A stretch of 64,000 nt of DNA from an uncultured bacterium (lineage in GTDB: Bacteria > Cyanobacteriota > Vampirovibrionia > Gastranaerophilales > Gastranaerophilaceae). Below, piece by piece: positions 11,950 through 16,421 of the stretch. Numbering within the stretch: the stretch's first letter is position 1; each line of letters starts with the position of its first letter. Below the pieces are notes generated by a model. That model saw only the letters and a program-made list of their open reading frames with translations, made no database searches and was not told the DNA's origin. Position numbers and translations under genes: made by a program. The stretch is taken from positions 12,817-76,816 of the forward strand of contig CASDWH010000016.1 in assembly GCA_949284715.1 (NCBI GenBank), written 5' to 3'.

Positions 11950-11978
11950 TTGACATATTTTAAATAATAGTGTACAAT
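11950..11978 (+). promoter_or_regulatory. near-consensus sigma-70 promoter TTGACA-17-TACAAT for the 12041 cassette
   Basis: Hexamers and spacing were read directly. An AAGGAG SD precedes the ATG at 12041. Confidence 0.6.
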
Positions 11979-12040
11979 GGTACATTATTAAGAATCCTAT
12001 GTAATTCATATACGGCATAAGTAAAGTAAAGGAGAAGCGC

Positions 12041-12688
12041 ATGTCAAATAATTTAAGAGATTATGTAAACGAAACATTGAATGATAACCGAATATTCAGT
12101 TATGAAGATATACTGGCAATGGATAATAAAGAAGGCAGACATTACCAGAAAGCGATAGAAGAACAGTATGGTAAAATAGGATTCCCGAGGAATAAAGAAC
12201 TGGCAGCGTCAGATGATGCGGTTTATGTCCGGGAATATACGAGAGATGACGGAACGGTTGTGAGAGCGCACTACCGTTCAAAAGCGGGACATGGTAATCC
12301 GGACAAACCGGTGATGAAAGGATTAAAAGAGTATAAAGAGGAGCTGGATAGATGGGTAGATGAATATATGACGCGTGATGCTGAAAGAAAGTACGGTAAG
12401 ACTACGGGATTTGCAGCGAATGCGAAAATACAGGAAGAAATTCCTGAATTAATACCCGTTAACGGCGTATTAACAGGCGGAATAGAGATTAACAGAGATA
12501 TAAGCCAAGAGGTTCCGGTAACAAATATACAGACAGAGCCATCGGGCGCAAATCCCCCTCAATCAGTTAAACCGGTTGTAAATATCAAGAAGCCGAATAC
12601 TACCCAACAAAAGATGATAGAAAATATAGACTTGCCGGAATATGAACGACTAAAACCAATAATTCCTTCAACAATGGAGATAGAATAG
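12041..12688 (+). CDS. hypothetical soluble protein (215 aa)
   Basis: Good SD. No signal peptide or TM segment. Contains VYVREYTRDDGTVVRAHYRS and a Pro/Thr/Gln-rich linker. It ends at a TAG that is in frame with the next ORF. Confidence 0.55.
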   Translation: MSNNLRDYVNETLNDNRIFSYEDILAMDNKEGRHYQKAIEEQYGKIGFPRNKELAASDDAVYVREYTRDDGTVVRAHYRSKAGHGNPDKPVMKGLKEYKEELDRWVDEYMTRDAERKYGKTTGFAANAKIQEEIPELIPVNGVLTGGIEINRDISQEVPVTNIQTEPSGANPPQSVKPVVNIKKPNTTQQKMIENIDLPEYERLKPIIPSTMEIE

Positions 12689-12697
12689 TTTAAACGC

Positions 12698-13501
12698 ATG
12701 CAGAAACCCGCATTGGGTGAGGAAATAATCCAGGAAACAAAAAAAGTGTTGTCAGATATATGGAATGGTTTTGAGAATACCATTAATGGTGGTGTATATG
12801 ATATATTATCTTCTGATGAAGTTTACGAATTGCAAAAAAATGCAAACAAGTATCCAATTATGAAAAACATTGGGCATGCATTATTGCCTGATGCTGTAGA
12901 TACATATATTGGAAATTTAACGCGGGGGAAAAATTATGAAGAAGAAAATGATAACCACCCCAAAAATCTTTCAAAAATTGCTCAGGTAACGAAAGTATCT
13001 AAATTGCAGAATAAGGAAATAAAAGATTTTATATATCGTACATATAAACGTATAAAATCTGATAATCCATTAGTAGTTTTGAACTCTCATTCAGAAGCTT
13101 CTAAAAGGTTAAAAAAATCTAAATATACTCAAAAAGTATTGAAAGAAAACTGGAATAGCATAAAAAATGGCGATTATAAAAATAAAATTTTAGGAATCAA
13201 CTACAATAAGTATACTATTCCGTTAAAGTATATAAATCCTGAATATTACAAAAATCAGAATATGAAGGCTGCATATAGCAAGCTAAGTATATTTAACCCA
13301 CATATAGACACAAATAATAATTTAGTAATGTATGCAATAGACTATGATGATTACGAAGAAAGCAAAAGTAAAGCAGGGGCATTAGATGCAATTAATGATA
13401 ATGCCTATAAATTACAGGAAAATGGTATTGTTGAACCATATTTAAAAATAATAGAATTAAAATTTACTCCTGAAGAGTTAAGCTTTATTATTGATAATTA
13501 G
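12698..13501 (+). CDS. hypothetical soluble Lys/Asn-rich protein (267 aa)
   Basis: Long ORF in a very AT-rich stretch, in the same frame as 12041..12688 (gap = TAG + 9 nt). No recognisable motif. Confidence 0.5.
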   Translation: MQKPALGEEIIQETKKVLSDIWNGFENTINGGVYDILSSDEVYELQKNANKYPIMKNIGHALLPDAVDTYIGNLTRGKNYEEENDNHPKNLSKIAQVTKVSKLQNKEIKDFIYRTYKRIKSDNPLVVLNSHSEASKRLKKSKYTQKVLKENWNSIKNGDYKNKILGINYNKYTIPLKYINPEYYKNQNMKAAYSKLSIFNPHIDTNNNLVMYAIDYDDYEESKSKAGALDAINDNAYKLQENGIVEPYLKIIELKFTPEELSFIIDN

Positions 13502-14505: not shown

Positions 14506-15453
14506 ATGTCTTGTTTTGAGAGATTAGAATTTAAAGAAATAAAAAAATTCCCAATAATAGAAATATCTTTGTTAGTTATATTGAGTATAGCGAGCAGCTG
14601 CCTCATACTCGGCTCATTAAGCATATCTTCATTATACATTGATGAATGGACAGCCCCGGTTAGTTTAGAAGCTGTATTCGGAAGTATAGTAATTTTATTG
14701 CATCCATATTTTCTATTTTTTTGTCCTATTTCTCCTTTAAGTGTAATTGCTATCGCTATTTTAATTAAAAACTTAACAACTAATAAATTTTTAATAAAGG
14801 GCTTTTGTAGTCCTCATATTTTCAATAAGGTATTAATAATAATTAGTACATTATTTTTAATTTCTAACCTGTTAACTTTTGGAATTTTTTCTAATTTTAA
14901 TATTTCGCAAGATATACAAATATTAATGCTAATTTTGTTATTCTCCGGATATGTTCTATATTTTTCAGTGTTGAGTATATTTTTTCTTGATAAAATATCG
15001 GGTAAATTGAAAAAAATAGCTTTGTTAAATAAATTAAATAATCTTACAAACAAATATCTTAATAATTTATTTATGCAGTTAGTTCCTATTTTGACAGTTA
15101 TTTTAGGGTATTGGTTGTGCTATGTGATTTTTAATCTGTCAGAAGAATTAACAATATATTATATTTCTCCGTTGATATACCTTTTAATTTTTTATATTGC
15201 TTTAGCGAAATCTTGTAAATTGAATGAATTAATTTATTTTTTATACCGGAAAATTATATATGTATTACTGCTCTACGCTTATGGAATATATTACATTAAC
15301 ACATCAAATAGTCCGGCCTCGTCTACCCTGACTGCTGAAGCTGTAAAATTTGCAATGATAATAATAACTGTAGTTTTACTGTTAAGGATACCATTGTATA
15401 AATTGCATCAGCGCAGTAAGAAAGCGTACAGAGAAGTTGAACAAAACATGTAA
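14506..15453 (+). CDS. polytopic membrane protein (315 aa), unrelated to the 278-aa pair
   Basis: About 8-9 hydrophobic helices. Extremely AT-rich. No catalytic motif. Confidence 0.6.
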   Translation: MSCFERLEFKEIKKFPIIEISLLVILSIASSCLILGSLSISSLYIDEWTAPVSLEAVFGSIVILLHPYFLFFCPISPLSVIAIAILIKNLTTNKFLIKGFCSPHIFNKVLIIISTLFLISNLLTFGIFSNFNISQDIQILMLILLFSGYVLYFSVLSIFFLDKISGKLKKIALLNKLNNLTNKYLNNLFMQLVPILTVILGYWLCYVIFNLSEELTIYYISPLIYLLIFYIALAKSCKLNELIYFLYRKIIYVLLLYAYGIYYINTSNSPASSTLTAEAVKFAMIIITVVLLLRIPLYKLHQRSKKAYREVEQNM

Positions 15454-15454
15454 A

Positions 15455-15517
15455 TGGCTATTGCTGGTGGAGTTGAAATACACGCCTGAAGAATGGGAAG
15501 CCATAATTTCTAATTAG
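15455..15517 (+). pseudogene. orphan 3' remnant of a diverged paralog of the 12698..13501 ORF
   Basis: It translates to WLLLVELKYTPEEWEAIISN*, versus PYLKIIELKFTPEELSFIIDN* at the end of the 267-aa ORF. The same TAATTAG and identical downstream sequence follow. Confidence 0.65.
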
Positions 15518-16406
15518 AAAATATATTAAAACAGTTGCAAATGTTGGTAGTATATGTTAATATACTACCAGCAGGAGCAGAATAATGTTTGATAAATTAA
15601 AGAAACTGCCGGTAATAGAATTTATATATATAATAAGCTTAAATTGTATATTAGCAGTGTATATTGTTATAATTTTTCTTCTAATGGCCTCTTTTAGCGA
15701 TGATAATTATCAACTAGAAGAAATAATAATATTAGGGTATCCACAATATGCTTGTATTTATATAATCGTTTCAGTATGTTTTTATTTGGTATTGTTTGGG
15801 ATATCTGTAAACAAATTATTTAATAAAATTGTTTATTTTTTTAAATTTAACACTAAATTCCGTTGGATAATGTATCTCTTGCTTTGTATTATTTCTCCGA
15901 CATTTTTGTGGGGAGTATTATCATTACATTTTATGTTGTTTATATTGGGTGTAGTATTTTCTCTTGCCATGCCGCTAATGCTGCTATACAGCTATTGGGG
16001 ATTGAAGGATAAACTGCCGTTAAGAGCAAGAAAAATCTATGGGTATATAAATAAAGCATTATACTTAATATTGTCATTGGTAATGGCTGGATTAATATAT
16101 AAATTCGCACGGGAATTACCGGCGGTATATATTTTAACAATTTTGACAGCGATATTTTTGTGCTTATCAATAAGAATAGAGGTAGTAACAGAAAAAATAA
16201 AGAAATACAAATGGCATAGTATACCGTTATGGATATCAGTAATATATGCAACGCTGTGGGGAATAAGAAACGAGTGGGTAACGTATTATGTATTGTTTAT
16301 ATCAGGAGTATTATTATTAATGCTGATATTTGAAAAACCGCTTTTAAAGTGGCGTTCCAAAAACGAAGCGTTACATATAGAAACGGAAGAGTATTATAAA
16401 GCTAAA
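15470..16406. repeat. segmental duplication, copy B
   Basis: See copy A. The offset is 2016 nt at the 5' side and 2010 nt at the 3' side. Confidence 0.9.
15535..15571 (+). promoter_or_regulatory. second copy of the TTGCAA-17-TAATAT promoter plus inverted repeat (one arm mismatch)
   Basis: Identical to 13519..13555 except for the last arm base (..ACTACCAg). Confidence 0.5.
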
Positions 16407-16421
16407 CATTATTCGGGATAA
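15585..16421 (+). CDS. polytopic membrane protein (278 aa), paralog B
   Basis: Same architecture as paralog A. The first ~85 aa are strongly diverged and the rest is nearly identical. Confidence 0.7.
   Translation: MFDKLKKLPVIEFIYIISLNCILAVYIVIIFLLMASFSDDNYQLEEIIILGYPQYACIYIIVSVCFYLVLFGISVNKLFNKIVYFFKFNTKFRWIMYLLLCIISPTFLWGVLSLHFMLFILGVVFSLAMPLMLLYSYWGLKDKLPLRARKIYGYINKALYLILSLVMAGLIYKFARELPAVYILTILTAIFLCLSIRIEVVTEKIKKYKWHSIPLWISVIYATLWGIRNEWVTYYVLFISGVLLLMLIFEKPLLKWRSKNEALHIETEEYYKAKHYSG

Follow-up and report, generated by a model that had tools for sequence, protein, structure and literature searches.

A candidate prophage-associated polymorphic effector/immunity-type module stranded in a Gastranaerophilales chromosome

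What is encoded by the run of unannotated genes that lies between a beta-lactamase-fold gene and clpB in an uncultured member of the Gastranaerophilales? The genes form a block (12041-16421) within a 64-kb stretch of contig CASDWH010000016.1 (hereafter, the window; coordinates are positions in it), with five open reading frames (ORFs) of 215, 267, 278, 315, and 278 amino acids (aa), all on the plus strand. A first-pass annotation, the ORFs of which were all recovered where it had placed them, had read them as a polymorphic toxin/immunity-like layout, with two soluble proteins followed by three membrane proteins. Here, we report a computational analysis of the block and its relatives, all of which are metagenome-assembled sequences. 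With a probability of roughly 0.58, the block is a module, now stranded in the chromosome, of a prophage-associated polymorphic effector/immunity-type family that is confined to the Gastranaerophilales.

The two soluble ORFs (215 and 267 aa) lie in the same frame, separated by a TAG codon and 9 nucleotides (nt), and hydropathy gave no transmembrane helices in either. They had been taken for two proteins; comparison with homologues shows that they are one gene of ~486 codons (hereafter, the effector gene) interrupted by a nonsense codon, because both halves are found in one chain in P0006 (417 aa), P0009 (398 aa), P0004 (421 aa), and L004:8357-9826 (489 aa), and because P0007 reads through the TAG position, with REIEESKRMQEQ exactly at the MEIE-TAG-FKRMQKP of the window. 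One G-to-T substitution would turn a glutamate GAG into this TAG, and TAG is an ordinary stop in this genome (11 of 49 long ORFs). The gene is split in the same way in a second, independent assembly from a metagenome (L006). Since the effector gene carries this premature TAG, it is probably a pseudogene or split gene whose predicted toxin is nonfunctional, leaving the block mainly as an immunity island.

The effector protein starts with an N-terminal module (N-module) of ~120 aa, made of an invariant NRIFS...YTRxDGTxVxAHYRS hairpin and a long helix. In AlphaFold2 (AF2) models, residues 1 to 120 had a predicted local distance difference test score (pLDDT) of 94 to 98, and the linker that follows (residues 121 to 215) scored ~50, as expected of disorder. 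The C-terminal domain (C-domain) of ~190 aa, encoded in the 3' part, was modeled from a 92-sequence alignment (mean pLDDT, 88.7; predicted template-modeling score, 0.84); its near-invariant residues are S132, S141, D215, D218, Q240, and Y248, and it has a DxYD(F/Y) motif and a KF/YTPEE tail. Both domains are thus modeled with confidence, and the predicted C-domain fold had no known relative in PDB or BFVD (Foldseek, E ≤ 1e-3), nor did the N-module model in BFVD at the same threshold. With PDB sequence profiles, neither domain had a significant match. No match was obtained for any of the five window proteins with Pfam, NCBIfam, or PADLOC (Pfam, effector, E ≤ 0.1; PADLOC-DB v2, E ≤ 1), and PHROGs gave only two weak partial matches (E, ~0.005), which were treated as chance. 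Library scans found no recognizable secretion or trafficking domain (LXG, WXG, PAAR, Rhs, TPS, MafB-N, or MuF). The statement that the soluble ORFs fit no recognizable family therefore held in these searches; homology to housekeeping or phage structural proteins, which the first-pass annotation had named as evidence that would count against its proposal, was found for no part of the block with the same libraries, profiles, and structure searches. The top Foldseek match to the C-domain, the type VI secretion system effector BtpeA, was not significant (E = 0.044; TM score, 0.18), and the literature on it was of no help.

Relatives of the effector were collected with an exhaustive profile search, which returned 832 representative clusters (50% identity; E ≤ 1e-3); a word-indexed search had found only ~20. 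A scan of one genome per species gave 43 loci, often several per genome, all in Candidatus Gastranaerophilales or in metagenome-assembled genomes labeled "cyanobacterium/uncultured," and on these sequences the family is specific to the Gastranaerophilales. Family proteins are 340 to 600 aa long, rarely up to ~980 aa, and the long members retain both end domains around large inserts, some with hydrophobic glycine-rich helices. Identity to the window protein is 57 to 69% before residue 122 in close relatives (47% in the more distant L001) and 23 to 35% after it in close relatives; the conserved part gives way to the variable one at a short boundary motif, RYG-x-PTGFAA (distant members have TGGAS). 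Among the best 150 of the 832 representatives, 60 had the N-module with the common C-domain, and 24 (longer than 250 aa) had the N-module with no detectable C-domain. Other cargos were a Gln_amidase domain (PF15644, "papain fold toxin 1") in P0092, P0130, and L042 and a Lipase_3/Mbeg1-like domain in P0113; Peptidase_M23 and SAA-like domains were also found beside the N-module in relatives, as were DUF6973 and LPD3 in distant loci. By these comparisons, the family behaves as a polymorphic effector. Its polymorphism appears to be mainly divergence within one fold, with true domain swaps a minority, because most members keep the same, very divergent C-domain.

The relatives are linked to phage genes. 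In seven groups of loci (L001-3, L005/21, L007/16, L015, L018, L019, and L020), the effector gene begins within a few nt of the end of the phage terminase large-subunit gene (TerL), at the edge of a phage-like cluster that includes GH108 and a DUF1353 tail assembly chaperone-like gene. A gene for the N-module with Gln_amidase (L042) lies between a portal/connector gene (PHROG 332, E = 2e-34) and M23 peptidase, scaffold-like, and major head genes, and a gene for DUF6973 with the module (L050) lies beside major head, terS, portal, and TerL genes and is adjoined by two small membrane protein genes. A 642-aa protein of L001 was tried as a portal candidate and rejected, having neither similarity to the L042 portal nor a PHROG match. 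Stand-alone copies sit behind a strong promoter of their own (window, L004, L011-L014, and L017); comparable promoters, TTGACA-17-TA(C/T)A(A/C)T, precede the genes of the stand-alone modules of L004 and L005. One further member (331 aa), in the complete chromosome OZ006972.1 (L030, 9463-14690), has two small membrane partners and is flanked by an XRE-type regulator on one side and, on the other, by an 802-aa gene judged by eye to be DUF262/DUF1524-like, an island-like, defense-type neighborhood.

Every effector-type gene, across subfamilies and lineages, is followed by one to five genes for polytopic membrane proteins; in L019, one soluble gene precedes five membrane paralogues. The three in the window have ~7, ~8, and ~7 transmembrane helices by hydropathy, in agreement with the first-pass reading of them as polytopic. 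The first 278-aa gene is the putative cognate partner of the window effector: its product is 56% identical to a 279-aa protein of L005, the gene of which follows the closest effector type (65% C-domain identity to the window). The 315-aa protein best matches proteins of L012 (339 aa; 55%) and L007 (330 aa; 54%), and its gene is an orphan, because the L007 counterpart directly follows an effector of another C-domain type ("FSKEEL"), which is missing from the window. The 278- and 315-aa types are remote homologues (hhalign of separate subfamily profiles, probability of 97.3%; E = 2.4e-11; 279 columns), and pairwise BLAST between them was not significant.

The duplication of the 278-aa gene was confirmed, and the two copies are mosaic. 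The leader and first 14 codons are nearly identical, residues 1 to 88 are 48% identical overall, and residues 89 to the end (~190 residues) are 98% identical, with 13 synonymous versus 3 nonsynonymous differences in the conserved part, which points to purifying selection on both copies. On sequence comparison, the second copy is an orphan: it has no cognate effector and adjoins the copied effector tail already recognized in the first pass (LLVELKYTPEEWEAIISN and stop, ending at 15517), which matches the tails of "KYTPEEW"-type effectors (L007 384-aa orphan, KYTPEEWAAITNS; L012, KYTPEEWQKIINN; L005, KYTPSEWQSIINE). A short junction remnant, which had escaped that annotation, also precedes the 315-aa gene (14443-14466). 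Each 278-aa copy is preceded by a hairpin with a perfect 14-bp stem (13526-13557, z = -6.7, RNA fold energy of -24.5 kcal/mol; 15542-15573, z = -6.3), and the leader occurs with compensatory stem changes in L005 and L007. In 10 loci, the leader ATATATTAAAAYAGTTGCAA plus hairpin is always placed 64 nt upstream of the ATG of 278-type genes, at the same spacing whether an effector gene or another membrane gene precedes it. This fixed position, together with the compensatory changes, argues that the leader is associated with the cassette; it may also provide homology for the exchange of cassettes, function within the mRNA, or serve as an operator overlapping a weak TTGCAA-17-TAATAT promoter. Each 278-aa copy had been credited with a promoter and a palindrome; the palindrome stands, as part of the leader, with only a weak promoter-like match, and a near-consensus promoter of its own is found only at the 315-aa gene. 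Identities of C-domains and of the adjacent membrane proteins are correlated (Mantel r = 0.68; reached in 0 of 5,000 permutations).

Some loci form arrays. L007 has four effector-type and seven membrane genes, and one of its effector-type genes is an orphan without the N-module (384 aa) that begins exactly at the boundary motif, with MPTGFAAD; other N-truncated orphans are found in L012 (one, 341 aa) and L009 (two). Inside the L007/L016 array, directly 5' of another effector copy, is a 63-aa copy of the last ~60 residues of TerL (9867-10058), so array growth used units that included the TerL 3' end. By hand tally, about 8 of about 17 distinct effector genes of close relatives are disrupted, and nearly all membrane genes are intact. 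The tally includes a nonsense codon (window), frameshifts (L007 and L010), a truncation (L007/L016), two N-less orphans, and insertions of a structured 165-nt element (one in L004 and two in L005). This asymmetry of broken effectors and intact membrane genes fits toxin loss with immunity retention. The N-module with its variable remainder, the Gln_amidase swap, the orphans, and the co-divergence of partners support the polymorphic toxin/immunity idea of the first-pass annotation; one part that fares less well is the variety of cargo, which is mostly one C-domain fold.

In several homologues, the ~165-nt element interrupts the stretch that encodes the N-module, with ...YYQKA on one side of it and LD(E/Y)QYGKIGFP on the other. 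Its two hairpins differ between L004 and L005 by compensatory changes, and its 3' part, CACACCTAARGGTCGGATTTGAAAAATCTC...ATCCTTCA, is conserved. No target-site duplication was seen, and exact excision restores the L005 reading frame. The element is absent from the window, and in the fetched loci, it is present solely inside the effector gene; Rfam gave only chance-level matches to miRNA-like hairpins. It could be an IS200/IS605-type miniature inverted-repeat transposable element that gene conversion has spread, or it could act like an intron or be bypassed.

In the mechanism that we propose for such a module, the N-module would be the conserved trafficking or loading part and the C-domain the cargo. 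The protein would exit the producer as virion cargo in phage or phage-like particles, or at prophage-induced lysis, a route suggested by gene position alone, and the cargo would act on the cell envelope or inner membrane of sensitive neighbors, a target to which the polytopic membrane partners point. The downstream membrane proteins would neutralize the cognate cargo domain at the membrane, and recombination at the N-module and at the cassette leader would shuffle modules, giving arrays, orphan C-terminal pieces, and orphan protectors. In the window, a nonsense codon would have knocked out the effector, and three protectors (one cognate and two orphan) would have been kept, which would make the locus mainly an immunity island now. 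A more specific version is tentative and rather doubtful. In it, the ~120-aa module would be a minimal "virion-loading" domain, not recognized before, with which phages of gut Melainabacteria load varied effectors into capsids where other phages use MuF; the C-domain would be a membrane-active toxin with a new fold, and the polytopic membrane proteins that counter it would form a new immunity superfamily. If the virion-loading version were true, this would be the first interbacterial antagonism system described for Melainabacteria, with phage particles as the vehicle; in our searches of the literature, no account of toxin, immunity, or prophage systems was found for the Gastranaerophilales.

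The block, if such a system at all, had been put forward as an undescribed type with no known delivery motif visible; since relatives sit in phage packaging/head modules, it belongs conceptually next to the MuF prophage toxins. MuF polymorphic toxins are carried by temperate phages (Jamet et al. 2017, PMC5576092; Bxa/Apk2, PMC11699363), and MuF prophage toxins of gut Bacteroidales follow the same logic, with a glutamine-deamidase cargo (PMC5576092, PMC11699363). The phage-borne relatives described here and MuF toxins both lie in the packaging/head module, beside portal or terminase genes; both combine a conserved N-terminal domain with a variable C-terminal cargo, share a glutamine-deamidase domain among their cargos, and are followed by putative immunity genes, possibly as poly-immunity loci; and both occur in gut bacteria. 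Unlike MuF toxins, however, the module has no match to PF04233 (Phage_Mu_F) or PF06152 (Phage_min_cap2), either in the window protein or in 41 relatives and a further, partly overlapping set, in a test that used an 882-aa protein of L054 as the positive control (PF04233 matched). Only the short YTRxDGTxVxAHxRS hairpin is shared, with this one real MuF protein. The dominant cargo here has a new fold, polytopic membrane proteins take the place of small soluble immunity proteins as partners, the host belongs to the Melainabacteria rather than to Bacillota or Bacteroidota, and many copies, that of the window among them, are detached from phage genes. What is new, then, is three unannotated components; the kind of system, a phage-associated polymorphic toxin/immunity module, is already known.

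The L054 protein (6687-9335) is a polyvalent-type head protein with Phage_Mu_F at aa 283 to 373 (PF04233, E = 2e-8); in it, the YTRxDGTxVxAHxRS hairpin, which is the core of the N-module in Gastranaerophilales, occurs twice. Its gene is downstream of a Mu-type portal gene, with one ORF between, and the link is a single contig. This short hairpin may be widespread, though unannotated, among the head-internal proteins of phages.

Other known systems share parts of this anatomy. In polymorphic toxin-immunity systems of the Zhang/Aravind type, an immunity gene immediately downstream specifically neutralizes the cognate toxin; the order of effector-type and membrane genes here is consistent with such a layout, and the orphan C-terminal fragments and orphan immunity-type genes typical of these systems are present (window, L007, L012, and L009). 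Contact-dependent inhibition (CDI; CdiA-CT/CdiI) and Rhs loci have a conserved N-part, a variable C-part, downstream protectors, and tandem orphan modules. The abrupt switch at a short boundary motif (here, RYG-x-PTGFAA/TGGAS), the downstream protector genes, and the N-less orphan modules of C-terminal piece plus protector are alike, whereas the window effector lacks Pfam matches and any features of two-partner secretion or of Rhs/YD, PAAR, or VENN proteins, and small proteins, phage linkage, and polytopic membrane protectors set the present family apart. Pore-forming colicins have integral-membrane immunity proteins. Like colicins, the effector would be a soluble modular toxin with no signal peptide, possibly released by lysis, with polytopic inner membrane immunity, which would imply a target in the membrane or periplasm; unlike pore-forming colicins, the window C-domain has no hydrophobic helical hairpin. 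A lead to the colicin M-like bacteriocins, which degrade lipid II, given by the DxYD motif and weak Foldseek matches to PaeM, was dropped: the DxYD(F/Y)-like motif lacks the HR of DxYDx5HR, PaeM matched at an E value of ~1 with a TM score of 0.13, and PDB profiles gave 0 matches at E ≤ 10. The acquired interbacterial defense clusters of Bacteroidales are islands of orphan immunity genes. As in those clusters, immunity-type genes outnumber and outlive the toxin gene (in the window, three intact versus one broken), but the genes are unrelated in sequence, and the window island is small and has no flanking recombinase.

Several observations weigh against the reading of the block as a stranded effector/immunity-type module. 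The C-domain has few invariant residues and no recognizable catalytic site, and its toxicity is a prediction; its shared fold is unlike the unrelated toxin domains of classic polymorphic toxins. The N-module has no similarity to known trafficking domains and is located C-terminally in the DUF6973 or LPD3 proteins of distant loci. The family is known from metagenome-assembled genomes alone. A tblastn search of 50,697 sequenced phage genomes gave 0 matches with the N-module and three chance-level matches with the hairpin motif (E, 5 to 6), and IMG/VR gave one partial match, L054, which covers the hairpin only. The window copy, between the beta-lactamase-fold gene and clpB, has no phage gene nearby, and none was found in the whole 64 kb. 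Co-divergence of neighboring genes is expected from linkage alone, and some of the frameshifts, such as that in a poly-T run of L007, could be assembly errors. Finally, the M23, lipase, and papain-fold cargos could be virion-associated enzymes for envelope penetration rather than toxins. Their resemblance to envelope-degrading enzymes of virions suits a different account, in which the soluble protein travels in the virion as a pilot or ejection protein, and the membrane proteins, as factors of the superinfection exclusion (Sie) type, block the cognate pilot. The C-domain would then engage the inner membrane for DNA entry, a phage arms race would diversify both partners, and chromosomal arrays of membrane genes would give resistance to several phage variants. 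The gene position in packaging/head modules, the family-wide C-domain fold with no obvious catalytic site, the co-divergence of the membrane partners with it, and the hairpin in a true MuF head protein (L054) are all compatible with that account. We nevertheless consider it unlikely. Several effector-type paralogues can occupy one locus, N-less orphans included (L007, L009, and L012), and about half of the copies are disrupted, even beside an intact TerL, which is hard to reconcile with an essential single-copy structural role; the stand-alone modules listed above have strong promoters of their own far from phage genes, and Gln_amidase is a catalogued toxin domain used by MuF toxins too.

An abortive-infection or other antiphage system carried as prophage cargo, with a soluble sensor and a membrane-collapsing effector (RexAB-like or similar), is more improbable still. 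Prophage-edge and island-like sites are typical of defense cargo (L030 has its XRE regulator and DUF262-like gene), and defense systems commonly pair a soluble protein with one in the membrane; yet 0 of the 5 window proteins match PADLOC, relatives carry the N-module joined to toxin or hydrolase domains, and up to five membrane paralogues accompany one soluble gene (L019). Orphan membrane genes are under purifying selection with no sensor beside them, and it is the soluble partner that is lost and the membrane genes that are kept, whereas a toxic membrane effector in need of control should show the reverse. Least probable of all is that no conflict is involved and that these are ordinary lineage-specific components of phage or cell envelope (for lysis, morphogenesis, or membrane remodeling) that have been duplicated and evolve fast. 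All parts are functionally unannotated, as AT-rich, fast-evolving genes of uncultured lineages often are, but a conserved N-module with variable cargo, orphan fragments, cassette leaders, multicopy membrane genes, fusions to Gln_amidase, lipase, or M23 domains, and a patchy, nonsyntenic distribution would be unexpected for housekeeping or structural genes.

The Gastranaerophilales, still largely uncultured, are widespread in the gut. An effector/immunity-type family of this form would enlarge the catalogue of polymorphic toxins by a trafficking module, a cargo fold, and a superfamily of membrane protein protectors, all of them new, and would extend phage-borne polymorphic toxins beyond Bacillota and Bacteroidota. 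The sharp boundary between N-module and cargo offers a way to mine effectors, and the cassette leader a way to mine protectors, from gut metagenomes; the confident models with no structural neighbors are good targets for structure-function work.

The features of the block are listed in Table 1.

Table 1. Features of the effector/immunity-type block in the 64-kb window and positions of the 165-nt element in related loci
Feature	Position	Strand	Basis
Sigma-70-type promoter of effector gene, TTGACA-17-TACAAT	11950..11978	+	11/12 consensus matches
Single effector gene, ~486 codons if read through, with in-frame TAG inside	12041..13501	+	Fused homologues
Effector 5' part: N-module (~1-120) and disordered linker (121-215)	12041..12688	+	Alignment, AF2
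Premature TAG (nonsense) codon	12686..12688	+	Read in sequence
Effector 3' part: helical region and C-terminal alpha/beta "cargo" domain	12698..13501	+	AF2, conserved columns
Leader/junction of first 278-aa gene: AAAATATATTAAAACAGTTGCAA, 14-bp-stem hairpin (13526-13557), GGAG	13502..13568	+	
278-aa polytopic membrane protein, copy 1, putative cognate immunity/protector	13569..14405	+	~7 transmembrane helices
Junction remnant AATAATTAGGAAATATATTAAA	14443..14466	+	Repeat family D4/D7
Promoter of 315-aa gene, TTGACA-17-TATCAT	14471..14499	+	11/12 in promoter scan
315-aa polytopic membrane protein, putative orphan immunity type, different subfamily	14506..15453	+	~8 transmembrane helices
Orphan 3' tail of displaced effector gene, LLVELKYTPEEWEAIISN and stop	15461..15517	+	Matches real tail, IIELKFTPEELSFIIDN and stop
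Second leader/junction copy, hairpin 15542-15573	15518..15584	+	Repeat scan, RNA fold z = -6.3
278-aa polytopic membrane protein, copy 2, putative orphan immunity type, mosaic with copy 1	15585..16421	+	
165-nt element	L005 3735-3897 and ~6167-6330; L021 same +22; L004 ~3433-3593; implied in P0009		

The block is flanked upstream by a Beta-lactamase2-fold gene (10580-11773; Pfam E = 8e-57) and downstream by clpB (16485-19112, minus strand), the 3' end of which faces it. The near-consensus promoter assigned to the block in the first pass was recovered at 11950-11978, and a good AAGGAG ribosome-binding site follows it. The description of the whole block as AT-rich needed trimming: the GC content is 0.22 to 0.32 over ~12800-16200, versus 0.35 to 0.43 in the flanks, but the first ~600 nt, which encode the N-module, are at 0.40 to 0.45, above the remainder of the block. 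An Rfam scan of the whole window gave 0 matches, and no recombinase or mobile-element genes flank the cassette. The cassette was present in 0 of 67 loci that have orthologues of the flanking beta-lactamase-fold gene, but these loci are distant (44 to 74% identity) and have lost clpB synteny, and the count shows only that the cassette is not a conserved neighbor.

The gap that separates the beta-lactamase-fold gene from the cassette promoter contains a perfect tandem pair of a 22-nt unit, AAAAATGTATATTTTTCTGCAA, at a spacing of 24 (11790-11835; repeat family D12), which could be a regulator-binding site or an insertion scar. A 120-aa ORF on the minus strand (11594-11956) shares sequence with both the cassette promoter and the 3' end of the beta-lactamase-fold gene; the public record has it as a gene (L006 1897-2259), but it is probably a spurious call in AT-rich sequence. 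Just 5' of the beta-lactamase-fold gene is a gene for a 1,037-aa protein (7367-10480, plus strand) with no significant Pfam match, a central hydrophobic Gly/Ala-rich stretch, and a C-terminal region containing ...HAGNCWYLE... and ...GHALAVTK...DPYN, a papain/calpain-like Cys-His signature by eye; it may be another effector-like protein. Just beyond clpB (19365-22445, plus strand) is a gene for a 1,026-aa multidomain cell wall enzyme, in which three LysM repeats are combined with Amidase_3 and a lysozyme domain of the phage type.

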